From NCBI GenBank assembly GCA_043800255.1, contig JAZDNF010000016.1:1-29312 (forward strand): a stretch of DNA of 29,312 bases, given 5' to 3'. Below are positions 2,477-28,155 of this stretch, in pieces; the stretch's first letter is position 1, and the number at the start of each line of letters is the position of its first letter. This DNA comes from Candidatus Altiarchaeota archaeon (GTDB lineage: Archaea > Altiarchaeota > Altiarchaeia > IMC4 > SCGC-AAA252-I15). The position numbers were made by a program, and so were the translations under genes. Below the pieces are notes generated by a model. That model did not search any database. It had not been told where the DNA came from and saw only the letters and a list, made by a program, of their open reading frames with translations.

Positions 2477-2528
2477 AAAGCCACCCGCGTTAGATATTTA
2501 TTTGAAAACAACGCTTTAAGTGACGTTT

Positions 2529-3956
2529 ATGGACAATAAGGGGAAACTCCAGCTTATTATAGTCTTCTCGTTGTTATTGAGAGTTATTCTGGCTTTCCAT
2601 ACAAGGGGTATTGCACGGGGTGATGAACACGAGTACCTGAGCATGGCAAACCAGTTGACGGGCGGGAGAATCGACTATCTGCTCGGTTTCAGGTCGTATG
2701 CATATCCGCTAATAGTCGCCGTACCCTTCGCGTTATCGAAGATCCTCGGAGTAATCAGTCCGGACATGATAATAACCGCAGCCCGGCTCCTTAACGTGGT
2801 GGCTTCAACGTTTCTGGTTTATATCACTTATTTATTGGGTAGGAGACTATACGACGAGAATGTCGGCTTGTTGGCCGCTTTTTTCGTAGGTTTCTCGTGG
2901 TTCATAACCGCCTGGACTTTAAGAGTTATGACAGAAGCATTAGCTTCAACATTCATATTATTTTCCTTTTACTTGATTCTGGAAGAGAAAGAGCTGCGGT
3001 CTGGACTCTTGATAGGAGCTGCGACAATGCTGCACATGAAGTATGCAATATTCATCATCCCGCTTCTCGCTTTCCTAACGGTTAAACGAAGGCATGCCTT
3101 GAAGTCTTTTGCCGTTGGTTGGCTGATGCTGTTTCTGGTGCAAGGTTTCGTGGACTACCTGACCTATGGCGAATGGTTCCATTCCGTTATCGAGTATTTC
3201 TTTCGCACACAAATCTTGGAGTACGCGAGATTGATTATTGAAAGCGGGGGAATCTCGGGAGTTTATGCGTTACATGAAAGCCTTTATCCGGGGCACGGCA
3301 CATCGCCGCTTTATCAGTATATGGGGATAATCCCAACGATAATCGCGCTTCCGCTCATCTTGTTCGTAGTATTAACGCTCAAGACCGAGTCGAAGACACT
3401 ATTAGCTTCGACTATTGCTTTTGTCCTGTTGGTTCTATCGTTTATGCCACACAAGGAGGATAGACTACTTTTTCCGATAGTTCCTCTCCTTTACATACTA
3501 GCTGCATTTGGGTTTTTCTGGATTTACAAGAGAGTGGAGAACTCCAAGGCCTGCAAGGCTATTTTAGTATTCAGCATCATAGCAGTATTCTCAAGCAATA
3601 TGTTCATGCTACAATATCTGCCATACAGGGCGCACTACAATGAAGCGGAAGCTATGAGATGGATCGGAAGGCAGGAGAACGCTGTGGGGGTCTTCTCATA
3701 CTATCACCCACCAAACTCAGGAGGATACATGTACATACAGAAGAACATACCAGTGTACTACTCAGAATTCAAGAATATCTCAGAGGTTGGAAGTGAGATA
3801 AACTATGTCGTCATCCCAGATTATCAAGCGGATGATCTCCTCTCCATCATCTATGAGAACTTCAGAGCAGTGAAAACTTTTGAGACAGACTACCCGAATG
3901 AGATTCTAATGGAGACGGCAGAGCAGGATATATTGGTCTACGAGCGGATAGTATAG
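2529..3956 (+). CDS. GT-C glycosyltransferase, Alg9/PIG-B-like mannosyltransferase family
   Basis: Multi-TM protein with DE in the first loop (GDEHEY) and an HKEDRLLFP motif typical of Alg9/PIG-B (HKExRF). ATG 2529 preferred over GTG 2520. Confidence 0.75.
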   Translation: MDNKGKLQLIIVFSLLLRVILAFHTRGIARGDEHEYLSMANQLTGGRIDYLLGFRSYAYPLIVAVPFALSKILGVISPDMIITAARLLNVVASTFLVYITYLLGRRLYDENVGLLAAFFVGFSWFITAWTLRVMTEALASTFILFSFYLILEEKELRSGLLIGAATMLHMKYAIFIIPLLAFLTVKRRHALKSFAVGWLMLFLVQGFVDYLTYGEWFHSVIEYFFRTQILEYARLIIESGGISGVYALHESLYPGHGTSPLYQYMGIIPTIIALPLILFVVLTLKTESKTLLASTIAFVLLVLSFMPHKEDRLLFPIVPLLYILAAFGFFWIYKRVENSKACKAILVFSIIAVFSSNMFMLQYLPYRAHYNEAEAMRWIGRQENAVGVFSYYHPPNSGGYMYIQKNIPVYYSEFKNISEVGSEINYVVIPDYQADDLLSIIYENFRAVKTFETDYPNEILMETAEQDILVYERIV

Positions 3957-5793: not shown

Positions 5794-7194
5794 CTAATTT
5801 ATGAGGTATATTTCCGTGATTTTGTTGTTGATTTCGAAGCCTTTTATGAGGGTGAGGTTGCCGGCGCTCTCGGTCAATATCTTCATAAGGTTTCCGTGGC
5901 AGGCAGACTGCGAAGAATAGACGAATATGTTAGCATTGGTCAGATCGCCGTTAACACAGGCATCACCTGCAATGGTTAAGGGTTGTTCGATATAATGCAC
6001 AGAAGGCAACATCAATGCATGATCCAAAGGCCATGATGAGAGAACAGTTGCATTAGGGTAATTCTTTGAGAGGTACTTTATTGCGTAGAGGTTGGTTCGG
6101 ACAGCATCAGCATATTCCATGTTAGACTCGAGAACGCAGCCGCAGGAATCGGTACGATCACCAGTCCAATTACCAATAGATAGGAGCACTAATAAGAAAA
6201 CAAAAGATATGTAAAACTCCGGTCTTCGCAGTAATGACTTAAGGGATAAGACACCAAGCAAAAAATAGGAGGGGTATGCTATGAGGACGTATCTGATTAA
6301 AAAACCTCTGATTAACGAAAATCCGAAGACAGTTGACAGCACCATGATGAGCAGGGGAACATACCTGAAATGCCTAAACTCGCCTCTTCTCAGAACTAGG
6401 ATAAGAATAATGGCGAATGTTAGAATAAAACGGAAATCCGACAGAAAAAAGTGACCAGATATAAGCAAAAACTGGGAGTATGCACTACTAAGAGGGAGAA
6501 AGCCGACCTGAGAGGGCTTCATAATCCAGCCCGCAATCAACTGGTGATGGAGAAGCCAAGCAACCCAGATGAAGGCAGGCAGAGAATAGAGGGGTAGGAA
6601 TTTCTTGATGCGTGAAGCCTCACTGATGCCTGTGGAGATCACATAGGATAGTACTGCTAATACTGGCAAAATGCCGGCCTCTTTAATCAAAACCGCTGAA
6701 AAGGCGGTTAACAGATATGGTATCGGTCTCTGGCGTATTCCATAGTAGAGCACCATAACAGAGAGCGCTGTCAACGGTATGTCAAAAAGAGCCTCGCCGC
6801 TGACGGAATAGTACATGGGGGAGAAGAAGAGCAGGATAGCGGCAAGAAAGCCCACAACCCTGTCAGACACGTAAGAGCCAAGGAGGTAGGTGTAGTATAA
6901 GCCAAGAAGAGAGAACACTAATATCAGCAGACGAGATAGGAGAAGAGACTCTCCAAGCACTGCATAAGAGATTGCAAACAGTTCATATAGGAGTGGAGGA
7001 TGGCCAAAATCCAGGTAATCTGGAAGATTGAAACTCAGATGGTTCTCAATCATCCAAAGGGAACCCTCAATAAGATGGAACTCGTCCCAGTAGTACGGAA
7101 GACTTAGGATAGGATATTTCAACAGGAGAACGGCGACAGCAAGTGAGAAAAGCACCACGTAATCAGAGTACCTACTGCCAGCTAGTATAACCAT
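5794..7194 (-). CDS. GT-C glycosyltransferase (ArnT/PMT-like, GT39/GT83)
   Basis: YWDE first-loop motif, GHPPL, multiple TM helices, IRY motif, soluble C-terminal domain. ATG 7194 overlaps the upstream TGA (TGATG). Confidence 0.8.
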   Translation of the reverse strand: MVILAGSRYSDYVVLFSLAVAVLLLKYPILSLPYYWDEFHLIEGSLWMIENHLSFNLPDYLDFGHPPLLYELFAISYAVLGESLLLSRLLILVFSLLGLYYTYLLGSYVSDRVVGFLAAILLFFSPMYYSVSGEALFDIPLTALSVMVLYYGIRQRPIPYLLTAFSAVLIKEAGILPVLAVLSYVISTGISEASRIKKFLPLYSLPAFIWVAWLLHHQLIAGWIMKPSQVGFLPLSSAYSQFLLISGHFFLSDFRFILTFAIILILVLRRGEFRHFRYVPLLIMVLSTVFGFSLIRGFLIRYVLIAYPSYFLLGVLSLKSLLRRPEFYISFVFLLVLLSIGNWTGDRTDSCGCVLESNMEYADAVRTNLYAIKYLSKNYPNATVLSSWPLDHALMLPSVHYIEQPLTIAGDACVNGDLTNANIFVYSSQSACHGNLMKILTESAGNLTLIKGFEINNKITEIYLIN

Positions 7195-7466
7195 CAAGCT
7201 GAAGTATGAGTTACAAAAGTATTCGTATGCTGTCCAGTAACAGTTCCGGTGACATCATCATAGCCAATCACAATCTGATTCGTATGCATAGGGAATTGCG
7301 ATTTAACGTCAGAAATGCTCAACATCAGATAGCCTAACGAAACAGCGCCGACTACGCTGCCAAGAACAGACAACGACTCCCTAGTAATCTTCCCCTCCTC
7401 CTCAGTAAGAAAGGATGATACGTCCTTCCTTATTGAAGGCAGTTTCGACTCCAGAAGACCCATCAT
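7194..7466 (-). CDS. Putative His-Xaa-Ser-system precursor peptide (HxsA-like) with pilin-like leader and hydrophobic helix
   Basis: ~90 aa directly downstream of hxsB. Contains FLTEEEG-KITRE, a 22-aa hydrophobic stretch and a Thr-rich tail with HTN, HTN and terminal HTSA. SD-like AGGTG precedes ATG 7466/7463. Confidence 0.7.
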   Translation of the reverse strand: MMGLLESKLPSIRKDVSSFLTEEEGKITRESLSVLGSVVGAVSLGYLMLSISDVKSQFPMHTNQIVIGYDDVTGTVTGQHTNTFVTHTSA

Positions 7467-7493
7467 AAACACCTACTTAGGATATTTGATTTA

Positions 7494-7512
7494 GTATATA
7501 AAACAGGAAAAA
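7494..7512 (-). promoter_or_regulatory. Candidate TATA box (TTTATATA) for the precursor gene, overlapping a T-rich tract after hxsB
   Basis: Minus strand reads TTTTTCCTGTTTTATATACT about 30 nt upstream of the precursor ATG. Confidence 0.45.
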
Positions 7513-7515
7513 CGG

Positions 7516-8955
7516 TTAAAAAGGCCTGGCTGAGGCCACCCAATTACGCAGTATTCTGTTATCTTCCTCTGAGCAGAGGAGCTTTTTGAAGAGAGTGTCC
7601 AGTATGGCAGAATGAACTTTACACCTGAAATCCACAGGAATTCTTGGAGTCGGAGTCTGACTCTCGGAAAACGCCCAAACAGGGCAGACACCACAGTAGG
7701 GCATCCATATGCAGTCAGAGCAAAGCAAAGATAGGCCTGAGGAGATATCCACCAAATCCAGAACAGTCTGAGAGGATAAGATTCCACCATATGTGTCATT
7801 AAGGACACTTCCAAGCCGGAAAATGTCAAAAGACCTGCCCTCATCGCACGTGTGGATGCTGCCATCATGAGAGTACGCAAGCTGGGATATCCCAGCACCG
7901 CATGGCATCTCAAGGTCACAGTAGTTTGGATTCCGACCCTCAATAATTTTCTTGAGGAAAACCTGTGTCAAACCCTCATTGAACTCGACACCATCCCTGT
8001 TCAAGCCCAAAATATAGTCCAACGAATCCTTCCAGAAGGATAGATAATCTGCAGGAGAATACCCTATCTTGTGCCACACGTTGGATGCAACTCCGACCAT
8101 TGTCAGGTATTTCAGCCTTATCGTAGGAAGGCCGTGGGATAAATACTCGTCAACAATCTCCCTCCAGTAGGGAAGCGAATGCTTCGTCACAACAGGGAGA
8201 GCGCCCACCTGCCCATACATATTATCCTTTCGGATAGTATCAAGCCAGTAGACGACGTCAGAGTAGCTGCCAGCGCCGCTCAGATACTTCCTGTTCCGGT
8301 CATGCACTTCCCGGGGACCGTCAAGCGAGGTCGATATTATAATCTCATTATCTGTTACGAACTTGAGTATGTCATAATCCATGAGAGTTAGGTTTGTTAC
8401 AAGTACATAACGTATTTTCTTCCTGGATGTCCTGTTAAGGCGTTTGGAATAGTCGACAATGTATTCGACGATTGGAAAGTTCATTAGGGGCTCGCCTCCA
8501 GATATCTCTATTGTAACGCTCTCTGCAGGGGTCTGAAATATGAAATCAACAGTCGCCTTCGCGACATCCTCGTCCATGTCGTATCCCCTCTCCCCCACAG
8601 GCTTAGCACAAGCAAAACAGTAACTGCACGCGTGATTGCACCTAAGGGATGGTGAAACTATATGAAGGCTTGTGCCAGAATACAGATGAGAATAATTCCG
8701 GAAGTAGGAATTTGCTATAACGCCCATATTCTCCGCGGTTAGGATAATGCCCCGACTTTCCAAAACATTGAATAGTATCGGATTTTCGGAGACCCTCCCT
8801 GTCCTGAGGAGATCATAGTTCTGCTGGGAGAGCGCAGCCCACGCTCCATGATCTGTTACGATTAGAAACCTGTTTCCGCCATACCTTTTGGCAGAATATT
8901 TGTTCGCAATATAATCGACGCCAGTAAGCGACAATTTAATTCTTTCCGACTCCAT
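7516..8955 (-). CDS. hxsB: His-Xaa-Ser system radical SAM maturase HxsB-like (SPASM)
   Basis: TSLHIV..LRCNHACSYC, IEISGGEP, TSLDGP, and the characteristic DLxxPCGAGISQLAYxxDGxIxTCDEGR plus CxxCxWxPYCGVCP. Start ATG 8955 (or GTG 8973). Confidence 0.85.
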   Translation of the reverse strand: MESERIKLSLTGVDYIANKYSAKRYGGNRFLIVTDHGAWAALSQQNYDLLRTGRVSENPILFNVLESRGIILTAENMGVIANSYFRNYSHLYSGTSLHIVSPSLRCNHACSYCFACAKPVGERGYDMDEDVAKATVDFIFQTPAESVTIEISGGEPLMNFPIVEYIVDYSKRLNRTSRKKIRYVLVTNLTLMDYDILKFVTDNEIIISTSLDGPREVHDRNRKYLSGAGSYSDVVYWLDTIRKDNMYGQVGALPVVTKHSLPYWREIVDEYLSHGLPTIRLKYLTMVGVASNVWHKIGYSPADYLSFWKDSLDYILGLNRDGVEFNEGLTQVFLKKIIEGRNPNYCDLEMPCGAGISQLAYSHDGSIHTCDEGRSFDIFRLGSVLNDTYGGILSSQTVLDLVDISSGLSLLCSDCIWMPYCGVCPVWAFSESQTPTPRIPVDFRCKVHSAILDTLFKKLLCSEEDNRILRNWVASARPF

Positions 8956-8956
8956 A

Positions 8957-9217
8957 TTAGGGTTTAAATTCACCTTTTACCCGCATTGAACATAGAACAT
9001 AGTTGGAAAACTCACTAGCCAGAACGGTCAGATCAAAATCCGATTGTCTGGGCTTTAGGGCGATGGTAATACTCCGACCCGTCTCAGAGGTTAAGGTAGA
9101 TTCACATATGTGTGAATACGCCTTGATTGCGTTTGAAACAGCCTCAGGACTATAGAATTGCTTGTTAAATCTTAAATCAATGGTATTGCCCTCTTTAGGG
9201 AGTGTTATGCGCTTCAC
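8957..9217 (-). CDS. HxsD-like small accessory protein
   Basis: FNKQFYSPEAV..AI..Y...EFSNYVL resembles the HxsD pattern and the adjacent ORF. GGTGA SD-like element; coupled to hxsB. Confidence 0.6.
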   Translation of the reverse strand: MKRITLPKEGNTIDLRFNKQFYSPEAVSNAIKAYSHICESTLTSETGRSITIALKPRQSDFDLTVLASEFSNYVLCSMRVKGEFKP

Positions 9218-9608
9218 CAGATTTCACCCTGACCTTCCCAACTTTCTTCCGGTTTGATGCGACAAAATTGGTCTGGAGAACCCGAATTAGGATAGCATCC
9301 CTGATAGCCTTGTTATCCTTCCCCCGCGACTTGTATAGTGCAAAATGTAGTAACTCGTTTGCAAACTCTCGCCCCAAAGACTCAACACTACGACCAGTCT
9401 TCGACCTCATACTGACAACAACCTTCTTTTTTGGATCACCGTCCAAAACAACCCAAACGCGATCCGTAAAGACGTACGCTGCAGAATAGATGACATCTAA
9501 CGGGTATATCAGAGGGTTAACATCCACCAAAACGGAACCTGACGCAGGATCAAAACGTATATTAGCAACACCTGAAAGGTTTTTCCTTGATTTAGATTTT
9601 GCAGACAT
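9195..9608 (-). CDS. hxsD: His-Xaa-Ser system protein HxsD
   Basis: IYPLDVIYSAAYVFTDR...EFANELL...IRDAIL pattern. GAGGT SD before ATG 9608. Confidence 0.75.
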   Translation of the reverse strand: MSAKSKSRKNLSGVANIRFDPASGSVLVDVNPLIYPLDVIYSAAYVFTDRVWVVLDGDPKKKVVVSMRSKTGRSVESLGREFANELLHFALYKSRGKDNKAIRDAILIRVLQTNFVASNRKKVGKVRVKSGEAHNTP

Positions 9609-9653
9609 CAGCAACCTCAAAAAAAAACAATTATTATTTGATGAATACGCCTA

Positions 9654-10673
9654 TTAAATCAGATTAAAAAAGGATAGCAGGTAGTAGACTACATTACCTC
9701 TCATCAGGTGAGTAAGCAAAGCTCCTGCAAAAATTAGGGGAGCGAAAGGAAGGCTAACGTGCACTAATATGCTGTCAAAAGACAGCTTATTATCATCGGA
9801 AAGTCGTCTAAGCCTTCGTATATCATCTTCAGACAACCCACCTATGCCAGGCTCTAGCAGATAAACCTCACTCTCTTTATTCTTGGCAGGAATCATCCCC
9901 AGCTTGAGGTCACTAATGCGGACTCTTCTGGTAGATACAATAAAGCTTACGGAGTAGATAACCTGCATAGCCAGTATTATAGGGGATAGGAGGAGTGCGT
10001 CTACCGCTAATGAGCGGATACCCTCATTGGCGAGGATAATGCGGGCTATCACAAAAGCTGCGGACAGATGAGTCAAATTAAGGCTCTGCATGCGTGAAAA
10101 AACAGATAGTAATAAGTATGTGAAGAACAAAGACAGTAGGATGTTGCCTTCTAAGCCAGAAAACTCGAACAAAATCCTGGAAAACCACATTAGACCCAGC
10201 AAAAACAGCAACGCTGTCAGAAATGCCTTGAAATTTAATGCATTCCTGACTGCAAGCTCCTTTTGACTGTAAGACGTCTCGATAAAAAATTTATAAAGCA
10301 TGAAAAACAGGCCGAGCAGGAAGGTGTTGAATAACAGCGTGAATGACGGAAAAAGCGACACGAAGCCAACCTTGTAGGATGCCAAAGGCAATAGAGCTGA
10401 GTAGACTATAAAAAGTTTGCCATCACCCGCAGACCATAACCTAAGCTCCCACAATGAAAATCCAACGAGAGAGGACATAATAACGTTTATAGAGTAAACA
10501 AAAAAAGCGTGCGAGTCTATACTGAGTATATAGTTTAATAGCAGACCGACGAGCAACATAGGTGCCAGATGCTTGTTTCTTATTTTGCCATGCCGTATGT
10601 CAGAAATAGATGTTATAACTCCTATGACAGAGATAACTATCAGAAGGGTAATGTTCCCTGAAGAATAGATCAT
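9654..10673 (-). CDS. A24-family prepilin/preflagellin-type aspartic peptidase (EppA/FlaK-like)
   Basis: First catalytic Asp in SISDIRHGKIRN, GxGD-like SAGDGKL, extra TM helices, C-terminal DLKLGMIP...GLSEDDI...PFAPLIFAG. Confidence 0.85.
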   Translation of the reverse strand: MIYSSGNITLLIVISVIGVITSISDIRHGKIRNKHLAPMLLVGLLLNYILSIDSHAFFVYSINVIMSSLVGFSLWELRLWSAGDGKLFIVYSALLPLASYKVGFVSLFPSFTLLFNTFLLGLFFMLYKFFIETSYSQKELAVRNALNFKAFLTALLFLLGLMWFSRILFEFSGLEGNILLSLFFTYLLLSVFSRMQSLNLTHLSAAFVIARIILANEGIRSLAVDALLLSPIILAMQVIYSVSFIVSTRRVRISDLKLGMIPAKNKESEVYLLEPGIGGLSEDDIRRLRRLSDDNKLSFDSILVHVSLPFAPLIFAGALLTHLMRGNVVYYLLSFFNLI

Positions 10674-10678
10674 ATTTT

Positions 10679-11164
10679 TTATGGCTCATGTATGAAGCCA
10701 ACATTAAGTTGGATAGTATTACTCCGGGGTATAACAGTGAATGCCAGCAACATCTCACCAGGTTTGAGACCAGTAATAACAAGATCATTGCAATTTTCTT
10801 CAACAAGTACGCCAACTCCATCAACGTACATTTCATTAAAACATCCGTCGATTTCAATCCTCAATGAGGAATTTGACGGTACCACAAGACGGGAACGAAA
10901 AAATGATGTCCTGCCATCCTTTTGCTTGAAGGGTAGGTTTATTGTCTTCCAGTTAGAATCGTTAAACATAGGTATATACCAACCACTTTTAAGTACATAG
11001 GACTGCTTCCAAGAGCCAGCATATGGAATCGAAGGAACGTGGTTGTCTAACAAGTCTGTAGGATAATCGGCAACAGTCAAGATGTAATTACGAATGATGA
11101 AGAGTGAGAACAAAAAGACTAAAGCCACTATACAGATTGTTTTCCAGTCCCTCTTCTGAGCCAT
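10679..11164 (-). CDS. Membrane-anchored/secreted protein with galactose-binding-like jelly-roll domain
   Basis: N-terminal TM. WY...FNDSNWKTINLP...FFR...IDG..EMYVDG resembles GH2 N-terminal sugar-binding domains. TATA-like AATATATA about 30 nt upstream. Confidence 0.55.
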   Translation of the reverse strand: MAQKRDWKTICIVALVFLFSLFIIRNYILTVADYPTDLLDNHVPSIPYAGSWKQSYVLKSGWYIPMFNDSNWKTINLPFKQKDGRTSFFRSRLVVPSNSSLRIEIDGCFNEMYVDGVGVLVEENCNDLVITGLKPGEMLLAFTVIPRSNTIQLNVGFIHEP

Positions 11165-11290
11165 AGTGTCGTATTTTTATTAGGTAAAAAGGTATATATT
11201 CATGAAAGGCAGGCGTTAGGATAGCAGACATCATAGTGACGCTGATTTGACAGCATTCTTTGAAACGCTCGGCTGCTTCTCCAATTGTGA

Positions 11291-13465
11291 TCAGAACTCA
11301 ACGCCGGCTGAAAGCTCCTCCAATTCGACGTCGCTTATCGGCGGCTCCTTGGGTGAAGGGCCTCTGCCCTTGCTCTTCCGGAATATCGAAATTAGAAGAA
11401 CGAGTATCAGAACGGCTAGAACAACCGGTAAAAACTTGCTCAACATGTCAGAAGCCTCCGAAGTACGCTCCGCCTTCTTAGCCTCCACACCACTCATAAA
11501 GGCTTCGACCTCTGAAACCGCGGTCTGATTGCCCAGATCCGCGTATATAAGCTTCGCCTGCCCGGCAGAGGCTAAAGCATTGTCATAGTCTATTGAAATC
11601 TCATACCTTTTCGCGGAGTCGAAGTACGCTACAGCGACATCGCCCAGCAGCTTATCAGATTTCCCTATCCCATCACTATCGCCAATCTCCTTGTAGATTA
11701 GTTTAGCCTCTCCAACAACGGTCGTCGAACCAGAATAGTTCCTGAAGTTGTACAGGTTAAGGGCGCTGCTATATAAGCCGTCAGCCTCGAACTTTCTGGT
11801 GCCCCTCATCTCAGTCCTGATCTGCGTCAGAAGCCGATCAGCCTTCTGGACGCCAACAGTGTCGTTTATGCCCTGATATATCTCCCTGGCAGCTCGGATG
11901 TACGTTATCGACTCATTGTACTTGTTTATGCCATAAAAGTCCAACGCCTTGTCGTAGTTGAAGTCAGCTATCCTCTTCTTGTCAGACTCGACGCCGGATC
12001 TTATCAAATCCAGGAGGAGGTCGATTTTCGGGAATCCGGACGGGTCTCGTATTTCAGAATAAAGTTCCCTCGCCCTGTCGAGGTAGATTATCGCCAACGT
12101 GTAATCGCCGGCATCATACTGCTCCTGCGCAATCCGGTAGTAGTATTCAGCCTCCTCCTTCTTCACGTAGGACTCGCGCATCTCATACAGTGTGACATTA
12201 TAGTCTGATGCCAGAAGCATGTCAACAAAGGAGTCGTTGTCAACGTCACCCAGAGTGATATCATAGACGGGGTGGCCCAGATACTGCTTCCACTTCAGAT
12301 TCCCGTTGCCGTAGAATACGTACATGTAGTTGTCGCGGTTGCCGACGAGGATTTCAACGCTGCCGTCGTTGTCAACATCCGAGACTTCGATAGACTTCGG
12401 CTCGCCCGAGAACCGGTACTTCCAGATAAGCTTCCCGTTTGAGTCCAGCACGTAGAGGGTATTATCGCCTGCGCCTGCTATAACCTCAAGCTTCGGGGTG
12501 CCCTCGAGGTTGGCTGCATGCAGAAGGTAGACGTCACTCCCAACATAGTAAGTCCAGTTAACCGTCCTGTTCTGGCTCAACACATAAATGTAGCCGTTGT
12601 CTGATCCTGCGAGTATCAGCTTCTCGCCAGAGTCGAACAGGTCTGCGGAGTGCACGACCCTCACCTTCGCATTCTTGGCAGTCTCCCCGTTCGGGTTTAT
12701 TATGGGCACAAGGTTGAAAGTGTACACGTCAGGTACGTCCTCCTCTATAACCTCTTTCTCGGTCAGGTTGTAGATCCAGCGTATGCTGCCATCATCGTCC
12801 AACAGGACGACGCTCCCGTTTCGCGTGAAATACTCCAGCAGAGTCCAGTTCTCCCTGTCATTAGCATAATCCGGGCCGTGAACCCACCACTCATCCCTGC
12901 TGAAATCGCCAGTCCCTAATATGAGCTCCAAATTTTCATCGGAATCTATGTCTATTGGGTCGATATCCTGGACGCTCGTCTCATAATCGAAAGTCCACTT
13001 TAGGGTAAGATCATGCTCATAGACTATGACCCGGCCCATGTTTCTGAGGGTCTTGAAGAGAACCCGACCATATCTGACGATAGTCTGGTCTGATTTGTTG
13101 TACTCATTCCAGGGATGCTCTACAAGCTCCCGCTTGCCCAATGTCCCAAGAACTAGTTCGAGCTCTCCGTCAGCGTCCACGTCCAGCATTCTGAGAACTT
13201 TGACTGTTCCGGTGTCGTTCACATTCCCTATGGAAACGTTCAATCTTAGCTTTCCATCAGAGTCAAAAAAGGACAGGGTGTTGTTTTTGTCAGCTACGAT
13301 GATGTCCTGGAATCCGTCTGAATCGAAATCCGCGATCGTGGCAGCGCCAACGCCAACCGTAAACGGCAGCCTCACCCTAGCATCGAGTTTGTCCTCTGTG
13401 GAAGCATTAACTGCGGGAGAAAGCAGGAGAAACGCCAAAAACAGGATCAGTATCTTCTCTTTCAT
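11291..13465 (-). CDS. Cell-surface FG-GAP/PQQ-like beta-propeller protein with TPR-like helical stalk and C-terminal TM anchor
   Basis: Signal peptide (…PAVNA), repeated DxDxDGxxE motifs with GxLxW, helical A..IY..IGD repeats, C-terminal hydrophobic helix followed by RKSK. Confidence 0.8.
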   Translation of the reverse strand: MKEKILILFLAFLLLSPAVNASTEDKLDARVRLPFTVGVGAATIADFDSDGFQDIIVADKNNTLSFFDSDGKLRLNVSIGNVNDTGTVKVLRMLDVDADGELELVLGTLGKRELVEHPWNEYNKSDQTIVRYGRVLFKTLRNMGRVIVYEHDLTLKWTFDYETSVQDIDPIDIDSDENLELILGTGDFSRDEWWVHGPDYANDRENWTLLEYFTRNGSVVLLDDDGSIRWIYNLTEKEVIEEDVPDVYTFNLVPIINPNGETAKNAKVRVVHSADLFDSGEKLILAGSDNGYIYVLSQNRTVNWTYYVGSDVYLLHAANLEGTPKLEVIAGAGDNTLYVLDSNGKLIWKYRFSGEPKSIEVSDVDNDGSVEILVGNRDNYMYVFYGNGNLKWKQYLGHPVYDITLGDVDNDSFVDMLLASDYNVTLYEMRESYVKKEEAEYYYRIAQEQYDAGDYTLAIIYLDRARELYSEIRDPSGFPKIDLLLDLIRSGVESDKKRIADFNYDKALDFYGINKYNESITYIRAAREIYQGINDTVGVQKADRLLTQIRTEMRGTRKFEADGLYSSALNLYNFRNYSGSTTVVGEAKLIYKEIGDSDGIGKSDKLLGDVAVAYFDSAKRYEISIDYDNALASAGQAKLIYADLGNQTAVSEVEAFMSGVEAKKAERTSEASDMLSKFLPVVLAVLILVLLISIFRKSKGRGPSPKEPPISDVELEELSAGVEF

Positions 13466-13466
13466 G

Positions 13467-14408
13467 TCAGGGTGCCTCTATCTGGGACAGCACTTTCTCG
13501 ATAACCTCGTCTGTTGTTGTGCCGTAATCTCTTACGTTAGGGTCTAATATGATTCTGTGCCTAAGTATGGGGTATGCCAGGTACTGTATGTCCTCGACGG
13601 TAACGTGGTCTCTGCCGTGGAGGAATGCCCTTGCTTTTCCTGTGTTCATGAACGCTATCTCAGCCCTCGGGCTGGCGCCGGTCCACACCTCCCTGCGCTC
13701 TCTTGTTGCTCTTACAATCTTCGTGACATAATCCAGAAGTGTCTCGGATATTGTCACATTCGCAGCTATCTCATCCTTTATTATCAACGCCTCCGCAGGC
13801 GTGAAAACCTTCTGAACCTCCTCATGATGGGATTTCGACTTCAGGATTGAAAGCTCATCCTCCTTGCTCAGGTACTCCAGATCGAGTTTTAACAGGAAAC
13901 GGTCCTTCTGGGCCTCCGGGAGGGGATTGGTTCCAACCTGCTCGACAGGGTTCTGGGTCGCGATGACGATAAATGGTTGAGGCAGCTTGTAGGATACCCC
14001 TCTGAAGGTGGCAGTTTTCTCCTCCATCACCTCCAGCAACGCCGACTGCGTCAGCGGGGGAGCCCTGTTGATCTCGTCTATCAGCAGGAGATTAGTGAAG
14101 ACCGGACCTTTCCGGAGCAGGTACTTGGCCTCCTCCTCGTCGTATATGCTCTCCCCCAGAAGCTCGGTCGGCGTCAGGTCGTTAGTGCACTGCACCCTCT
14201 TGAAGTCGCAGTCTATCGTCTTCGCAATGGTATTGGCAAGGACAGTCTTTCCCATACCTGGAACGCTCTCAAGCAGTATGTGACCGCCGCAGAACAATGA
14301 GATGAGTACGCCCTCTATGATGTCATCATTGCCGATTATGACCTTGTGGACTTCGTTTATTATCCTGCTGAACTGCTGGAACACGTCCTTGTCCTTCTCG
14401 AGGGCCAT
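13467..14408 (-). CDS. moxR: MoxR-family AAA+ ATPase
   Basis: HILLESVPGMGKT (Walker A), LLIDEINRA (Walker B), IATQNPVE, GTNPLPEAQKDRF, GASPRA, LRHRI. Confidence 0.95.
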   Translation of the reverse strand: MALEKDKDVFQQFSRIINEVHKVIIGNDDIIEGVLISLFCGGHILLESVPGMGKTVLANTIAKTIDCDFKRVQCTNDLTPTELLGESIYDEEEAKYLLRKGPVFTNLLLIDEINRAPPLTQSALLEVMEEKTATFRGVSYKLPQPFIVIATQNPVEQVGTNPLPEAQKDRFLLKLDLEYLSKEDELSILKSKSHHEEVQKVFTPAEALIIKDEIAANVTISETLLDYVTKIVRATRERREVWTGASPRAEIAFMNTGKARAFLHGRDHVTVEDIQYLAYPILRHRIILDPNVRDYGTTTDEVIEKVLSQIEAP

Positions 14409-14442
14409 CGCTTATTTATTTCCAATTAGACTATAAAATCGG

Positions 14443-17214
14443 TCATAATTCGACGCCCCTGTCGCATGACGACAGCACCGTTTTAACAACGGGTTTGTTG
14501 GAGTCGTCGCTGGTTGCCAGTATCAGAGCAGAAATCTTGTCTATCCTGAGCTTGTTTATGATGAAATGAGCCATCTCCTCAACAGGCTTGGATTCGTTGT
14601 AGATGAGCAGGCTTGAAAGCGAGTCGAACATCAGGAACTTCCTGCCGGATTTGACCTTGGACAGCATCCTGTCAACGTGCATGCTTATCTCCTCAAGAGA
14701 CGCCGGGTTTTCGATGAAAACGACATTTTCCCCGCCGTCTGTAGTCTTCCCCGCCATCGTTGAGATGCAGTCTATGAAGTAGAGGTCATCAGCGGTTATC
14801 CCATTCTCTCCCATGGCATCCTTCAGGCTTGAATAGGGTTTGTTGAACGTCAGGTACACCCCGCCGAACTGTTTCATCGCCTTCAGAACCTTCAAAGCGG
14901 CTATTATCACCTTCGAATGTTCGACAGGATTGTACGTTAGAAGAACTATCGGGCTCTCAGAGTCTGGAAACGCGTCCGACAGCTTGAGCACAGCCTCCTC
15001 CATCTTGGTCCTGCGGGCCTCCTGGTCCTTCTCCCTGACACCTTTCGTGCTCTCTTTCACGCTCATGGTTATCATGTTCGACGACTTCATGTACTGCTTG
15101 TCATCCTGATCGTGGTACAGCACTTCAAGAGGCCGGAAGTCGTAGACGCCAATCTCTTTGGGGGTGATCTTGAAGAGAAGCGTCTTTGACTCGTTCTTTT
15201 TCAGAATGTCTATCCTATCTGCCTCTGACACAGTCTCGAATTCTATGGGAACATTCGACCTGAAAACTATCTTCTTAACGTCCTGACCCCCCTTGTTGGT
15301 TATGATCCCGTTCAGTTTGACAATCTCGTCTTTCTCTGCGGATGAAGGCTGATTGACTGACAGTATGATCTCCGGTTTCGAGGCGATGTGGCCCAGAAGT
15401 TTCTCAGCCTCTGTCTTTAGCGCGTCAATGTGTCTCTTGTAGAAAAAATCAAGCTCCGTTTTGTCAATACCTGAGGTTCGGGAGACCACGTTGTTCAACA
15501 TCTCGGATGACTTGGCGTACTCCGCCTCCATGAGCATGAGCTTGGCATTCGCAAGGTTAAGCTGTATGTCCGCCAGATTTGCTTTCAGCTCATCTCCCAG
15601 ATGCCTGTAGAGGTCAACAGCCTTCTTGAGATTGTCAGCGGCCTTCTTGGGCAGCTCGGTCCTCAGGTATCCCTCACCGATGTCCGAATAGGCCCGCGCG
15701 ATTTTCTCATCATCCCTGTCAGCCTTCAGCTCCTCAGAGTCCAGGAACTCTGTCTGCTGCCATATCATCTTGTTGCAGTGGTTTCTTTCCGCGCTTTCCT
15801 GGTTCATGTAGCCGTAACACCATGAGGCTAGCTTATAGCTGTTGGCTGCGTTAAAGTAATCCTTCTTTTTCGAGAAGTCGTCCCCAGTCTTCTCGAAATA
15901 CTGGGCAGCATGGGAGTAGTCCCCAGCCTGCAAATAGGCGTCAGTCGCCCTTTCAAGTTTTCCGGCGTTAACGTACAATTTAGCAGCCTTCTGGAAGGCC
16001 TCAACCGCCTTCTCAGCATTGCCCCCTTTTTTCTCGGATTCGCCCATGATGAAGTATAGGTCTGCCGCCTTCTCATTATCCTTGAGCTTTTCATAGCTTT
16101 CGGCAGCTGCCAGGTATTTAGAGCCGACAGACTCCAGTCTGCCGCTGACCTTGTCGCTTTCGGCAAGACTTAGGCTTAAGTCGACTATCTTCTTCCTCGC
16201 CTCAACGGACTCGAACGACTTTCTGGCAGCATCTGCCAGAGTAGCAGCGTCATTGAAGTATTTGATGGCAGTTTCAATGTCGCCCAGAGTCTCATGACAA
16301 CCTCCCAGATCCATGAGGGCGGACGCCTGGCTTGCCTGGTCTTTTGTCTCTGAGGCAAGTTTCTCGGCAATGGAGAAGTAGGTTATAGCCTCCTTCAGCT
16401 TGTTTGTCTGCTTGTAGCATTTGCCAACGCGGGTATAGTTTTTAATCGCGCTGCCCAGATTGCTCTCCTTCCGGTAGAGTTCAGCCGCCTTAAGGTAATA
16501 GTCAATGGCATTCTCATAATCTTTCTTGTTCTCGTAAGAGGATGCCACCTTCTCATCGCATTCCGCGAACTTCAGGTAGTCATTCGACTTTTCAGCAAGA
16601 CCACCCGCAAGCTTATAAGACTCCAGTGCTTTGTCGTTGTCGCCGTCAAGCTGATAGCAGTTGCCTGCGCTTACAAGATTGTCGCTTGCCTTGGGATAGT
16701 CCTTTAATTTTATGTTCAGGGCGCCAGCCATCTCGTACAGTTTGCCGGCCTTCTTACAGTCCTTAATCTTCTCGTAGTATTGCGCCGCCTCCTGCAGCGC
16801 ATGGCTTGCTTCGAACGTCTGCCCTAGCTCAGCATACATGAGGGCTGCTTTCTCGTCGTATTTCGCGGCACTGTCAAAGTTGCCTAACGTCTCGAAACAC
16901 TGGCCTGCAGACCCGTATGCCAGCGCAGCCTTGTGTTTTATCCCCAATTTGTCGAACATGTCCCCCGCCCGGATGTAATATTCACTGGCGCTGTTAAGGT
17001 TGTGGAACTTCTCATCCTCAAGAAGAACTTCGATTTTGGAGTAACATTCGGCCACCTTTACCAGCAGTTCAGCAACGTCAGTAGTCTGATCATCTGCTTT
17101 AGACTTCAGGACTTTAAGGTAGTTTGCTACGGCCTTTCTGTAGTTTTTGCCGGCGTAGCTATTCTCAGCCAGTTTCAAAGCTACGGAGGAGGTGGCCCTG
17201 TCCAGGATTCCCAT
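14443..17214 (-). CDS. TPR/alpha-SNAP-like repeat protein with Ig-like (CARDB-type) domain and C-terminal degenerate RecA/KaiC-like domain
   Basis: About 600 aa of A..Y..AA..Y helical repeats, then a beta-rich segment (ITNKGG...LLFKITPKEIG.Y), then GGVYLTFNKP...YFIDCIS...FDSLSSLLIYN with no Walker A. Confidence 0.75.
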   Translation of the reverse strand: MGILDRATSSVALKLAENSYAGKNYRKAVANYLKVLKSKADDQTTDVAELLVKVAECYSKIEVLLEDEKFHNLNSASEYYIRAGDMFDKLGIKHKAALAYGSAGQCFETLGNFDSAAKYDEKAALMYAELGQTFEASHALQEAAQYYEKIKDCKKAGKLYEMAGALNIKLKDYPKASDNLVSAGNCYQLDGDNDKALESYKLAGGLAEKSNDYLKFAECDEKVASSYENKKDYENAIDYYLKAAELYRKESNLGSAIKNYTRVGKCYKQTNKLKEAITYFSIAEKLASETKDQASQASALMDLGGCHETLGDIETAIKYFNDAATLADAARKSFESVEARKKIVDLSLSLAESDKVSGRLESVGSKYLAAAESYEKLKDNEKAADLYFIMGESEKKGGNAEKAVEAFQKAAKLYVNAGKLERATDAYLQAGDYSHAAQYFEKTGDDFSKKKDYFNAANSYKLASWCYGYMNQESAERNHCNKMIWQQTEFLDSEELKADRDDEKIARAYSDIGEGYLRTELPKKAADNLKKAVDLYRHLGDELKANLADIQLNLANAKLMLMEAEYAKSSEMLNNVVSRTSGIDKTELDFFYKRHIDALKTEAEKLLGHIASKPEIILSVNQPSSAEKDEIVKLNGIITNKGGQDVKKIVFRSNVPIEFETVSEADRIDILKKNESKTLLFKITPKEIGVYDFRPLEVLYHDQDDKQYMKSSNMITMSVKESTKGVREKDQEARRTKMEEAVLKLSDAFPDSESPIVLLTYNPVEHSKVIIAALKVLKAMKQFGGVYLTFNKPYSSLKDAMGENGITADDLYFIDCISTMAGKTTDGGENVVFIENPASLEEISMHVDRMLSKVKSGRKFLMFDSLSSLLIYNESKPVEEMAHFIINKLRIDKISALILATSDDSNKPVVKTVLSSCDRGVEL

Positions 17215-25860: not shown

Positions 25861-26427
25861 ATGGCGGGCAGAATATTACAACACCTTAGACAGAATTCAA
25901 AACTGATAGGTTACTGCGCCCTTGTTTTTTCAGCCGGGTTGACTGGGGGTTTCATGCTGCTGCCCTATGTTGAGGATCGCGTGAAGGAGCTGCTGCCCAG
26001 CATCTTTGAGGGCATTATCGTGGAAGGGTCGAGCTTCAGGACGGCTGTTAACATTCTCTTGAGGAACATGAAGGCGTCGCTCATCATGCTATTTCTTGGC
26101 ATCACTGTTGTCGTGCCTCTGCTCGTACTGTTCGTGAACGGGTTCATGGCTGGGCTCATACTGAGGCTGGCTGTTGAGGAAAGCATTCCAGCGAAGACCA
26201 CCATATTGGGCGTCGTATTCCATGGGATGCCAGAGCTTCTGGCGATTTTCGTCTCGGCAGCTTTCGGGTTGAGGATAGGATTCGCCCTCTTCTCCGCAAA
26301 GGATAGGGTGGAAGAGGTTAAGACATCAGTAACTCAGGCAGCCCAGGTATTTCTCAGGTTCATCTTACCCCTTCTGGTGCTGTCTGCCTTTATCGAGGCC
26401 TACGTTTCCTCTTCCTTTGTTCTTTAG
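25861..26427 (+). CDS. SpoIIM/DUF95-family membrane protein
   Basis: ILLRN, LFVNG, HGMPELLAI, SAFIEAYVS. True start is likely ATG 25861, not 25678. Confidence 0.8.
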   Translation: MAGRILQHLRQNSKLIGYCALVFSAGLTGGFMLLPYVEDRVKELLPSIFEGIIVEGSSFRTAVNILLRNMKASLIMLFLGITVVVPLLVLFVNGFMAGLILRLAVEESIPAKTTILGVVFHGMPELLAIFVSAAFGLRIGFALFSAKDRVEEVKTSVTQAAQVFLRFILPLLVLSAFIEAYVSSSFVL

Positions 26428-28155
26428 GCGCCTGCGGGCAACCAAGATTAGTAGGATAAGTGCAACAGCCGCAAACAGCCAGATGACAGAATATCCTTTC
26501 TCCTCGCTTCGGCTTTCTCTCAATGTGGTTGGCACAGGCGAGCTTGTCTCCACAGTCTGATTTTTCATTTCCCCTGAGAGCCGGATTATAGGTTCAACTG
26601 TCATTAGGCCGACAGTATCATTCAACTCCAAATAGATTTCCTTGGCCTTTTCAGCGTAGTCGAGAGCTTCTTTGAAACTGTTGGCAAGATAAGCCGCATG
26701 AGCCTTGCGAGAGTATTCCTCTGCCAGGGGCTTTATGTTTAGAGAGTTGTTCAGCGCTTCGACCGCCGTCAGGCCGCTGGCGTCTCCAAGTTTCTCATAA
26801 ATCCTCGCAGCCTCTGTCAGGTGTTTGGTCGCGTTCTCAAAATCGTTGACGCTGACGTATGCTCTGGCCTTCATCAGGTTTTCGCCGGCAGCCTGGAAGA
26901 GGTTGTTATTCTCCAGGTCGTCTTCATAATCTTCCAGAGTCTGCTCCAACAAGCTTATCATATCAGTGTCGTTTAGGCTCGTATAGAGTTCTATGGACTC
27001 TTTAAGGGAAACTACCGAGCCAACGTAATCTCCTGACCCGTGTTTTTCAAGGGCGAGATTATAGTATAATTCCGCGCTCTCCCGCATCAGATACCGTTGA
27101 TCAAGCCTGTAGACGTCCAAACCCCTGTTAGTGCCTATTAATATGTCAACTCTGCTGTCACCGTTGATGTCGGCAACCAACAAGTGCAGTATCTTGTTCT
27201 CAACAGTATACCTCCATTTTATGGTGCCGGTATTGTCGAACAGGAAAAGAACGTTCCCTGAGCCTACCAGAATCTCCTTTCTGCCGTCGCCTTCCAAGTC
27301 TGTTGCGAGTAGGTTAGATGTCAGGTCGTTGATACTCGTTGACCATATCTTCTCGCCTGCCAGGTTCAGAAGATAGAGTGTTGTCTTTGAGGCAGCGAGT
27401 ATCTCAGACCTGTTGTCATAGAGCAGGTCATCAGCTAACACGCTCTGCATCCTCTCCCCAGACGAATATGTCCAGTTGACGCCTCCATTATCCAAGAGCG
27501 AGATTCCCGTGAAAGTCCCTGCGACAATCTCATGGTCGAAGTCCGAGTCAAGATTCCCGCACCAGATGTCCCACACGCTAACTCCAAGGTTCATGGAGCT
27601 TAAGAGGTTTCCGTTTGCATCAAGGTGGTAGATGTTGAAGTCGTTCGACGAGAATACGATAGTCTTCGTATCGTTCAGGACTCTTATTCTGACTGAAGTA
27701 GGCAAGCGGCTGTCCTCGAAAGTCCACTTCACCCTGTTGTACAGTTTGTTCAGCCCTCTCTCGCGCTCCCGCTCTATCCTGTAGAGGAAGTGCATGTTCG
27801 CGCTCCCCGACCTTATCTGGGAGCCGGCGAGTATGTCAAAGTCGCCGTCATCGTCGAGGTCGCCGACTTCGACAAGAACTATCTCCTCGCTAGGATATAA
27901 GTAAACATTAGGCTTTTCCACGACAGTGTCCCAGAGGAGTGTGCCATTCAGGTCGTAGGCTGTGATAAGGCTCCGGGAGGGGTCCAAACTGACAGTGTAT
28001 ATCTCCTCTCGCCCGTCCCTGTCAAAATCCAACAGAGTTATACCGTTAGCGCCGCTGACAAGATGCTGGCTCCATACCAGCTCCAGCGGCGCGCTCGCCT
28101 GAGACGAGACAAAAGAGGCTGAAACCAGCAAAAACAGCAAAAAAACAACCCTCAT
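26365..28155 (-). CDS. Cell-surface FG-GAP beta-propeller protein with TPR-like stalk and C-terminal TM (paralog of 11291-13465)
   Basis: Signal peptide, DFDRDGREE/DLDDDGDFD/DINGDSRVD repeats, helical A..IY..L.D repeats, TM helix followed by RRR. Confidence 0.8.
   Translation of the reverse strand: MRVVFLLFLLVSASFVSSQASAPLELVWSQHLVSGANGITLLDFDRDGREEIYTVSLDPSRSLITAYDLNGTLLWDTVVEKPNVYLYPSEEIVLVEVGDLDDDGDFDILAGSQIRSGSANMHFLYRIERERERGLNKLYNRVKWTFEDSRLPTSVRIRVLNDTKTIVFSSNDFNIYHLDANGNLLSSMNLGVSVWDIWCGNLDSDFDHEIVAGTFTGISLLDNGGVNWTYSSGERMQSVLADDLLYDNRSEILAASKTTLYLLNLAGEKIWSTSINDLTSNLLATDLEGDGRKEILVGSGNVLFLFDNTGTIKWRYTVENKILHLLVADINGDSRVDILIGTNRGLDVYRLDQRYLMRESAELYYNLALEKHGSGDYVGSVVSLKESIELYTSLNDTDMISLLEQTLEDYEDDLENNNLFQAAGENLMKARAYVSVNDFENATKHLTEAARIYEKLGDASGLTAVEALNNSLNIKPLAEEYSRKAHAAYLANSFKEALDYAEKAKEIYLELNDTVGLMTVEPIIRLSGEMKNQTVETSSPVPTTLRESRSEEKGYSVIWLFAAVALILLILVARRRLKNKGRGNVGLDKGRQHQKG

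Follow-up and report, generated by a model that had tools for sequence, protein, structure and literature searches.

A variant Hxs peptide-maturation cassette from archaeal genomes with a prepilin-type A24 peptidase as candidate leader peptidase

In silico work by Haft and Basu, as cited in PMC9062424, first predicted the Hxs system; HXS, which comprises HxsA, HxsB, HxsC and HxsD, was later demonstrated to act against phages in E. coli (Li et al., Nat Commun 2026, PMC13128918). Maturation of bacterial HxsA characteristically involves cleavage at the N-terminus, which requires each of HxsB, HxsC and HxsD, as does a +8 Da modification on an SHRSS motif; that work did not identify the protease. 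It describes HxsA as having a signal peptide and matured HxsA as periplasmic, located on peptidoglycan and stopping DNA entry, and places 99.7% of HXS systems in Pseudomonadota (PMC13128918). Here we describe a related cassette on a 29,312-nucleotide contig of a Candidatus Altiarchaeota archaeon (GenBank assembly GCA_043800255.1, contig JAZDNF010000016.1, positions 1 to 29,312; hereafter the window), in which the genes for an A24 (prepilin-type) peptidase, two HxsD-family proteins, the radical SAM maturase HxsB and a small precursor peptide lie together.

The cassette is best read as a variant Hxs peptide-maturation system composed of the A24 peptidase, HxsD, an HxsD-like paralog, HxsB and an HxsA3/HxsA4-like precursor, with no HxsC. 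The interpretation that we favor, with moderate confidence and on the basis of sequence features, is that the A24 enzyme is the dedicated leader peptidase, which would cut the precursor after an invariant glycine once the chemistry and membrane insertion have taken place, leaving a helix that would anchor the modified tail.

An earlier note on this DNA had described the run of A24 peptidase, HxsD, HxsD-like protein, HxsB and peptide, and all five open reading frames (ORFs) were recovered on the minus strand at the same positions, with profile matches that agreed with their names (Table 1). On our ORF reading of the window, they belong to a series of nine co-oriented, tightly packed genes extending on the minus strand from 11164 to 3963; within the cassette, adjacent genes overlap by 23 and 17 nt or are separated by gaps of 33 and 49 nt. 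HxsB matched TIGR03978 over its full length (protein residues 30-479, profile positions 8-466 of 466), carried the CxxxCxxC motif as CNHACSYC and also matched Pfam Radical_SAM and Fer4_12. HxsD scored slightly below the cut-off of its family, and its position between the A24 and HxsD-like genes was kept in other loci, as was that of the HxsD-like gene. HxsC was not found, the best score in the genome of the window being 69.4 bits against a cut-off of 267.9. The second radical SAM gene of the series was considered as HxsC and rejected, with 43.1 bits against the same cut-off; it is likely a tailoring enzyme.

The association of the A24 gene with the Hxs genes was found well beyond the window. 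A peptide-anchored scan, in which each species was represented by a single genome, revealed 22 loci, 20 on archaea-labelled contigs and two from one Desulfobacteraceae metagenome-assembled genome (MAG); its pattern, EEGKISKQ, was matched exactly, which limits the sample to members with that motif. Hidden Markov models (HMMs) built here detected HxsB in 16 of the 22. The order A24-HxsD-HxsD-like-HxsB-peptide on one strand was present in all 12 loci that have sequence upstream of HxsD, and in the remaining four HxsB loci the contig ends at or before HxsD. The 12 loci carried the labels Woesearchaeota, Nanoarchaeota, Micrarchaeota, Aenigmatarchaeota, Methanosarcinales and unclassified archaea. 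The peptide stood alone in the other six loci, and HxsB was located elsewhere in three of their five genomes, in two canonical cassettes, one rearranged-adjacent site and one HxsD-HxsD-like-HxsB group without an A24 gene nearby. The parts were scattered and all present in genome G061, where a cassette-type A24 lay approximately 80 kb away and scored 173 bits on the cassette profile versus 29-54 bits for ordinary paralogs. The two loci of the Desulfobacteraceae-labelled MAG (L026 and L033) had typical long-repeat precursors and neighboring ORFs without a Pfam match, and neither HxsB nor a cassette A24 was found anywhere in this 4.7-Mb genome; mis-binning of the two contigs or orphan genes may account for this.

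A second scan, anchored on the motif around the second catalytic Asp of the A24 enzyme, covered the best 80 of 304 relatives in metagenomes; some of its contigs duplicate peptide-anchored loci, such as L112 and L042. Hxs genes were present in 59 of the 80 loci, co-oriented within 300 bp of the A24 gene in 41, divergent within 300 bp in 8, and farther away or otherwise arranged in 10 (L096 included). Another seven loci were partly testable and had no Hxs gene in view, and nine were untestable. The earlier note had made its proposal depend on synteny of the A24 gene with hxsB and the precursor in other genomes, which the two scans bear out (12/12 and 59/80).

In an HxsB-anchored search of 61 genomes of the same phylum as the window, HxsB was found in six at E <= 1e-60, five of which scored above the cut-off. 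An A24 homolog shared the locus with HxsB in the window and in two others, L017 (co-oriented) and L019 (adjacent, divergent), and stood 5.6 kb from HxsB in L018 and 4.6 kb in L021. In the sixth HxsB genome, the cassette contig starts within HxsD and a cassette-type A24 lies at the end of another contig. No recognizable precursor was found in L018, L021 and L064, even at relaxed thresholds. Scores above 300 bits on the cassette A24 profile occurred only in the six HxsB-positive genomes of the 61 (five of these six sequences were in the profile and one was outside it). Three HxsB-less genomes had A24 enzymes of 95-105 bits (G024:C13:70932-71849, G028:C36:13267-14229 and G032:C93:6155-7138), and the other 52 genomes gave no match at E <= 1e-25. 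Taken with the HMM E-values, synteny conserved across dozens of unrelated contigs places the cassette beyond chance. The Atlas clusters nearest to the A24 enzyme and the peptide of the window include ones with largely bacterial members (Bacillota, Elusimicrobiota and Omnitrophota), so the cassette is possibly not confined to archaea; the word archaeal describes the loci examined and not a proven range.

The A24 enzyme of the window has approximately 9-10 hydrophobic or transmembrane segments by hydropathy and an Arc_PepC-like soluble insert. Its putative catalytic residues are D25 and D84 (in SAGDGKLF), which, with D84 in the A-G-D-G-K motif, align to the Asp pair of the ordinary A24 paralog of the same genome. 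In the hydropathy profile, D25 closes the first membrane segment and is followed by a basic loop, and D84 opens another segment. D25, G83-D84, K86-L-F, P96, Y100 and N116 were invariant in 15 of 15 cassette A24 enzymes; D25, N33 and P96, all three outside the search pattern, were present in all 80 metagenome homologs. Since both catalytic Asp residues and N33, K86 and P96 are strictly retained, the cassette A24 is probably an active protease. Pfam PF01478 was matched by 9 of the 15 cassette homologs (E <= 1e-3), and the Atlas model of the window enzyme (pTM 0.70) showed TM scores of 0.52-0.59 to clusters named A24, whereas a PDB search with the cassette A24 profile returned no A24 chain at E <= 1. 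Residues ~275-339 (window 9654-9850), a C-terminal amphipathic region and the last membrane helix, gave weak PDB matches to Sec61-gamma (E 0.003-0.06), a resemblance that is probably due to chance.

In a maximum-likelihood tree, a single branch (100/99 support) set 17 cassette A24 enzymes of several phyla apart from eight other A24 paralogs; the tree is unrooted, and the eight paralogs all come from the phylum of the window. The genome of the window has a second, ordinary A24 on a different contig, and each related genome contains two to three A24 enzymes. A housekeeping prepilin peptidase was considered for the cassette A24 and rejected, given this second A24 and the separate clade of the cassette enzymes. 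The best NCBIfam match of the cassette A24 was FlaK, at 18.5 bits versus a cut-off of 330, and no NCBIfam model names it; two cassette A24 enzymes are publicly named "hypothetical protein" and "glycosyltransferase family 39 protein".

A single-sequence word search with the peptide of the window returned the query alone, and a profile search was therefore needed. The family profile was built from four precursors and searched against 1.84 billion proteins at E <= 1e-3, which gave 360 cluster representatives; motif statistics refer to the best 150 of these 360, of which 149 show [F/Y]-x5-G. The consensus of the 149 is (I/L)-P-K-I-K-K-K-x-x-x-F-L-x-x-E-(E/D)-G-(K/R)-I-(S/T)-K-(Q/E)-S-L-L-x-x-G. 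With the Gly taken as position 0, E was found at -2 in 146 of the 149, K/R at +1 in 127, I at +2 in 136, K/R at +4 in 146 (K in 142) and a second Gly at +11 in 139; position +5 was E in 31, Q in 71 and K in 17. The A24-anchored sample had Gly in 34 of 35 precursors and Ala in one, the sole substitute seen. P12, E25, G27, I29 and H82 (window numbering) were invariant in 34 cassette precursors. Leaders span a median of 21 aa up to the Gly, and hydrophobic residues at -16, -13, -9, -6, -5 and +2 indicate helical periodicity. Positions +1 to +6 are polar or basic with a net charge of +1.8, and because +1 and +4 are basic, the hydrophobic run begins only at +7; this uncharged run has a median length of 18 aa and ends at approximately +24. 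The Gly and the hydrophobic helix, whose conservation among homologs the earlier note had named as a test of its idea, were thus found to be kept in the family, with Gly in 149 of the 150.

Past the uncharged run, we observed an Ala/Ser-rich patch in which +27 to +30 are mainly Ala, and the first His follows at approximately +32. Family tails read H-x-N ... Y-D ... T-x-H, most homologs add long H-x-S-H-x-S arrays, and about half of the short members have Tyr or Trp at the C-terminus. Among 106 members compared with NCBIfam at E <= 1e-3, HxsA3 was matched by 105, HxsA4 by 32 and bacterial HxsA by 11. In some precursors the His-x-Ser repeats are followed by a self-cleaving module at the C-terminus, of either the Hint/PT-HINT or the Peptidase_S74 type (P0052, P0067, P0077, P0080, P0094, P0142, P0149, L028:194-994 and L037:10001-10948; also P0139 and L067:1005-1577). 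The Peptidase_S74 domain, an intramolecular chaperone domain known from phage tail fibers, was found in two of the homologs. One of the 34 cassette precursors matched Pfam Collagen (E 3.2e-07), presumably due to H-G-S repeats that place Gly at every third position.

The precursor of the window, present as a single copy in its genome, is likely a 90-aa rather than a 92-aa product, because GGTG sits just ahead of the probable ATG start at 7466. The peptide sequence and the codons of Gly27 (7394-7392) and Glu32 (7379-7377) proved to be as the earlier note had given them, and the uncharged stretch, of 22 aa, is S33-S54. True His-Xaa-Ser repeats occur in the homologs, and the window peptide itself contains three His only (H-T-N, H-T-N and H-T-S). 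Against the curated HxsA3 rule, the peptide reached 28.7 of 65 bits with one H-x-S and two H-T-N, which makes it a divergent relative and not a member; as judged from its sequence, it belongs to the HxsA3/HxsA4-like family and has a degenerate His tail. No Pfam domain, and hence no peptidoglycan-binding domain, was found in the 92-aa ORF. A small-residue site, S-I-S|D, directly follows the uncharged stretch. In the tail, H82 is invariant, and H63, N65, I67, Y71 and D72 are conserved in close relatives. The tail is the presumed target of HxsB, by analogy with bacterial HXS (PMC13128918).

On the favored interpretation, the precursor would be made with a basic amphipathic leader of ~21-27 aa, which would serve HxsD, the HxsD-like protein and HxsB in the cytoplasm as HxsB modifies the C-terminal tail with its His residues. 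The uncharged stretch would then insert N-in/C-out and thereby export the tail, and the GxGD aspartyl peptidase would remove the leader at the cytoplasmic face, most likely after G27 (G27|K28). The product would consist of a membrane helix preceded by a short Lys-rich N-terminus and followed by the modified tail outside, with the kept helix substituting for the peptidoglycan-binding domain of bacterial HxsA. In the window, the tail would probably also be glycosylated outside the membrane by the coupled PMT_2-type transferase, for which the GT2 enzyme would give the lipid-linked sugar.

Several points weigh against A24 cleavage after G27. In known A24 substrates the hydrophobic stretch starts at +1, and a FlaFind-type rule asks for Gly or Ala at -1 with a hydrophobic helix immediately after. 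In the cassette precursors the Gly is kept, but with basic residues at +1 and +4 and a hydrophobic run only from +7 onward; the order K/R, I, S/T, K/R, polar, polar after the Gly is unlike that of known A24 substrates. The hydrophobic run opens with the conserved Gly at +11, which, judged by sequence, is an alternative cut site, yet it lacks a charged residue at its own -2 position. Moreover, the conservation of the leader could come from binding to HxsB or HxsD rather than from protease recognition. At the locus level, L018 and L021 have an A24 gene 4.6-5.6 kb from HxsB and no recognizable precursor, and 5 of the 80 A24-anchored loci have no Hxs gene although at least 1.5 kb is available on both sides. 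Finally, the Ala/Ser-rich end of the run resembles a signal peptidase I site, and the helix may therefore be removed and not kept.

This last point leads to the best-surviving alternative, which we regard as unlikely yet the most serious of those considered: the stretch after the Gly would be a Sec-type h-region, signal peptidase I would cut the Ala/Ser-rich c-region (S-I-S|D), and a soluble, secreted His-rich peptide would be released. The A24 enzyme could then trim the N-extension, cut at G38 or, like a signal-peptide peptidase, remove what is left of the signal peptide. The sequence after the Gly is indeed signal-peptide-like in its charge over +1 to +6, its 18-aa run and its Ala residues at +27 to +30, and small-x-small endings are seen by eye and composition in almost all cassette precursors inspected. 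The self-cleaving Hint or S74 domains at the C-terminus of some homologs suggest that proteolytic release is a habit of the family. Bacterial HxsA likewise carries a signal peptide and ends up in the periplasm (PMC13128918). However, a clean-up job explains poorly why a dedicated A24 clade lies beside the cassette across phyla, and a freed peptide would lack an anchor such as bacterial HxsA has in its peptidoglycan-binding domain.

It is quite improbable, in our estimate, that the cassette A24 leaves the Hxs precursor uncut and instead acts on another substrate or serves as a scaffold, export partner, immunity or regulatory protein. The atypical context of the cleavage site, the five A24-anchored loci without nearby Hxs genes, the lack of a recognizable precursor in L018 and L021 and the intermediate A24 relatives of the three HxsB-less genomes would fit such a role. 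Against it stand the strict retention of both catalytic Asp residues, N33, K86 and P96, the restriction of >300-bit A24 enzymes to the six genomes with HxsB, and the N-terminal extension with its invariant Gly, which is the one precursor feature conserved family-wide.

The earlier note had further proposed a polymerizing, pilin-like product, for which the Gly at -1, as in A24 substrates, an acidic leader end that resembles Flp-type prepilins, four T2SSE-family ATPases in the genome of the window and the trimer-promoting S74 chaperone domain of two homologs might speak. None of the 34 precursors matched the Flp, class III signal, N-methyl, archaellin or other pilin families of Pfam (E <= 1), and the precursor profile matched no PDB sequence at E <= 10. 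No pilus ATPase or platform protein was found among 46 neighbor genes of 14 cassette loci or in the window, and the four T2SSE-family ATPases are all on other contigs. Glu at +5, which the note had taken as a pilin feature, is not conserved (31/149), and its own caveat that Lys at +1 and Arg at +4 are atypical for pilins extends to the whole family (K/R in 127/149 and 146/149), placing basic residues in what would be the filament core. The idea that the cut peptide polymerizes as a pilin-like subunit into a radical-SAM-modified surface filament is therefore weak and very improbable.

From its homology to bacterial HXS, we suggest for the peptide a role in conflict or defense at the level of the envelope, which is the least certain step of the scheme. 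We infer this role from the HXS homology, the patchy spread (6 of 61 genomes), the several HxsB copies in some genomes, the hypervariable core and the variable tailoring genes; these features are typical of conflict systems and are no proof, and a specific defense role would derive from homology only. In its widest form, the scheme is a recruited A24 leader peptidase in a widespread DPANN- and methanogen-related pathway, with bacterial leads, whose glycosylated His-rich surface tail forms an envelope barrier against viral DNA as an archaeal counterpart of HXS; we offer this form tentatively, as a possibility that is still rather doubtful.

The glycosylation part of the scheme comes from genes that follow the peptide. 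The operon continues with a PMT_2-type gene, a GT2 gene and the second radical SAM/SPASM gene, and the peptide TGA overlaps the ATG of the PMT_2-type gene (TGATG), which represents translational coupling. From sequence, the tail is probably exported and its Ser/Thr-rich end glycosylated in this window. PMT_2 genes adjoin the cassette in four loci, among them the window, L041 and L067. In L025:5189-7852 (+) and also in L092:146-2809, PMT_2 (GT39-type) is fused to the cassette A24 in an 887-aa protein, which occurs on five contigs under the public name "glycosyltransferase family 39 protein". A24 enzymes work at the cytoplasmic face of the membrane and GT-C enzymes at the outer face; the fusion therefore fits one N-in/C-out membrane-inserted substrate for both enzymes. 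The GT2 enzyme of the window is likely the donor-making enzyme for the GT-C transferase; it scored 55.9-57.2 bits on NCBIfam models, far under their cut-offs of 316-529, and is weakly like polyprenyl-phosphate sugar transferases. A GT2 homolog was found in L036 and radical SAM-GT2 fusions in L035 and L041. Across cassettes, the neighbor genes, often after the precursor, include many further radical SAM enzymes (B12-binding and SPASM types) and glycosylation genes. Downstream of the cassette precursor in L035 lies a gene for a 1678-aa protein with four radical SAM domains and SPASM (8151-13187, +). PMT_2, GT2, the second radical SAM gene, the 161-aa ORF and the FG-GAP protein were considered as core cassette parts and rejected, as BLAST found no conservation except for one GT2; at the Pfam family level, PMT_2 and GT2 do reappear, though in a minority of the cassette loci.

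Upstream of the A24 gene, a 161-aa ORF with a hydrophobic segment at its N-terminus may be the first gene of the operon. It had no Pfam, NCBIfam or PADLOC match and no homolog among the other cassette loci. The plus strand carries an additional GT-C gene (Glyco_transf_22/PMT_2) at 2520-3956. Two proteins of the FG-GAP/beta-propeller kind that have TPR-like tails were found within 11291-17214 and 26365-28155, both on the minus strand; the same regions contain a MoxR-type AAA+ ATPase (13467-14408) and a 923-aa TPR/SNAP-like protein, a likeness to MoxR-vWA-propeller-type ternary sets. The remainder of the window contains the archaeal housekeeping genes TFIIB, Hjc and ArgRS. The GC content is 0.40-0.46 across the first 11 kb, where the cassette and the glycosyltransferase genes lie, and 0.48-0.55 over most of the remaining sequence.

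Table 1. Genes of the operon in the window and parts of the precursor peptide, with profile scores.
Feature	Coordinates	Strand	Remarks
ORF without family, 161 aa	10679..11164	minus	Stops 5 nt upstream of A24 start
A24 peptidase, 339 aa	9654..10673	minus	Pfam Peptidase_A24 PF01478, 34.1 bits (cut-off 26.5); weak Arc_PepC
HxsD homolog, 141 aa, pI 10.4	9195..9620	minus	TIGR03976, 45.4 bits, E 7.6e-12 (cut-off 50)
HxsD-like paralog, 86 aa	8957..9217	minus	NF038315, 60.9 bits (cut-off 41)
HxsB radical SAM/SPASM maturase, 485 aa	7516..8973	minus	TIGR03978, 387.9 bits (cut-off 370)
Precursor peptide, ORF of 92 aa	7194..7472	minus	NF038309 (HxsA3), partial, N-terminal, 28.7 bits (cut-off 65)
Basic amphipathic leader, ending F21-L22-T-E-E25-E-G27	7392..7466	minus	Proposed A24 cut after G27, inferred
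Uncharged stretch S33-S54	7311..7376	minus	Membrane anchor or signal h-region; includes second conserved Gly, G38
Core tail D55-A92 with H63-T-N, Y71-D and H82	7197..7310	minus	Presumed exported; presumed HxsB target
PMT_2-type (GT-C) membrane glycosyltransferase, ~467 aa	5794..7194	minus	Pfam PMT_2, 27.2 bits (cut-off 26.1)
GT2 glycosyltransferase, 238 aa	5036..5752	minus	Pfam Glycos_transf_2, 85.4 bits
Second radical SAM/SPASM enzyme, 358 aa	3963..5039	minus	Pfam Radical_SAM and SPASM matches

If the A24 enzyme is the leader peptidase, ribosomal peptide maturation would gain a leader peptidase of a new class, namely an intramembrane aspartyl protease of the GxGD type, and the substrate range of A24 enzymes would widen past pilins and archaellins. 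A protease encoded by the cassette itself gives a handle on the N-terminal cleavage step known from bacterial HxsA, and the family supplies a defined motif, F-L-x-x-E-E/D-G|K-I-S-K, together with two catalytic Asp residues. DPANN archaea and genomes labelled Methanosarcinales commonly carry the cassette, and in these groups surface peptides and envelope antiviral defense are barely known.

Our literature search returned nothing that joins HxsA with archaea, or prepilin peptidase with radical SAM and peptides that are made on ribosomes and modified after translation (RiPPs). For class III signal peptides together with radical SAM, it gave only work about giant genes of predatory bacteria. The main text of PMC13128918 uses none of the words archaea, A24, prepilin, pilin and peptidase, and term searches of an archaeal RiPP survey and of a paper on an archaeal SPASM enzyme found no Hxs, A24 or prepilin terms. 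PADLOC (2023, which has no HXS model) gave only generic viperin-like radical SAM matches in the window.

Several known systems can be compared with the cassette. RiPP clusters encode leader peptidases such as C39 peptidase-transporters, subtilisin-like LanP, M16 and TldD/E-type enzymes. The cassette resembles such pathways in its conserved leader, variable core, radical SAM/SPASM maturase, small partner proteins, variable tailoring genes and cluster-encoded protease gene, but its protease is an intramembrane prepilin-type aspartyl peptidase. In class III signal systems, FlaK, PibD and EppA act with archaellins and pilins, and TadV/CpaA with Flp pilins. Shared with these systems are a polytopic A24 GxGD enzyme with both Asp residues and an Arc_PepC-like domain, and a substrate that has Gly, rarely Ala, before a membrane helix and, as in Flp prepilins, an acidic leader end. 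In contrast, the cassette precursor has six polar or basic residues between the Gly and the hydrophobic run, no conserved Glu at +5, no pilin match and no linked ATPase or platform protein, and it is the substrate of a radical SAM pathway.

The closest likeness is to bacterial HXS and to the families HxsA3 (NF038309), HxsA4 (NF038313) and HxsD_rel (NF038315). Members of the precursor family match the first two and the 86-aa protein of the window passes the third, whereas the window peptide reaches 28.7 of the 65 bits needed for HxsA3, in its N-terminal part only. As in bacterial HXS, there is an HxsB above the NCBIfam cut-off, small proteins of the HxsD family and a precursor with an N-terminal hydrophobic export signal and a His-x-Ser-type tail; in bacteria, the precursor is N-terminally processed and its active part works outside the cytoplasm, as would be the case here. 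Unlike bacterial HXS, the cassette has no HxsC, contains two HxsD paralogs and a dedicated A24 enzyme, and encodes a small precursor (~90-120 aa) with a conserved ~21-aa N-terminal extension and no peptidoglycan-binding domain; its tailoring genes differ between loci, and its hosts are mostly archaeal.

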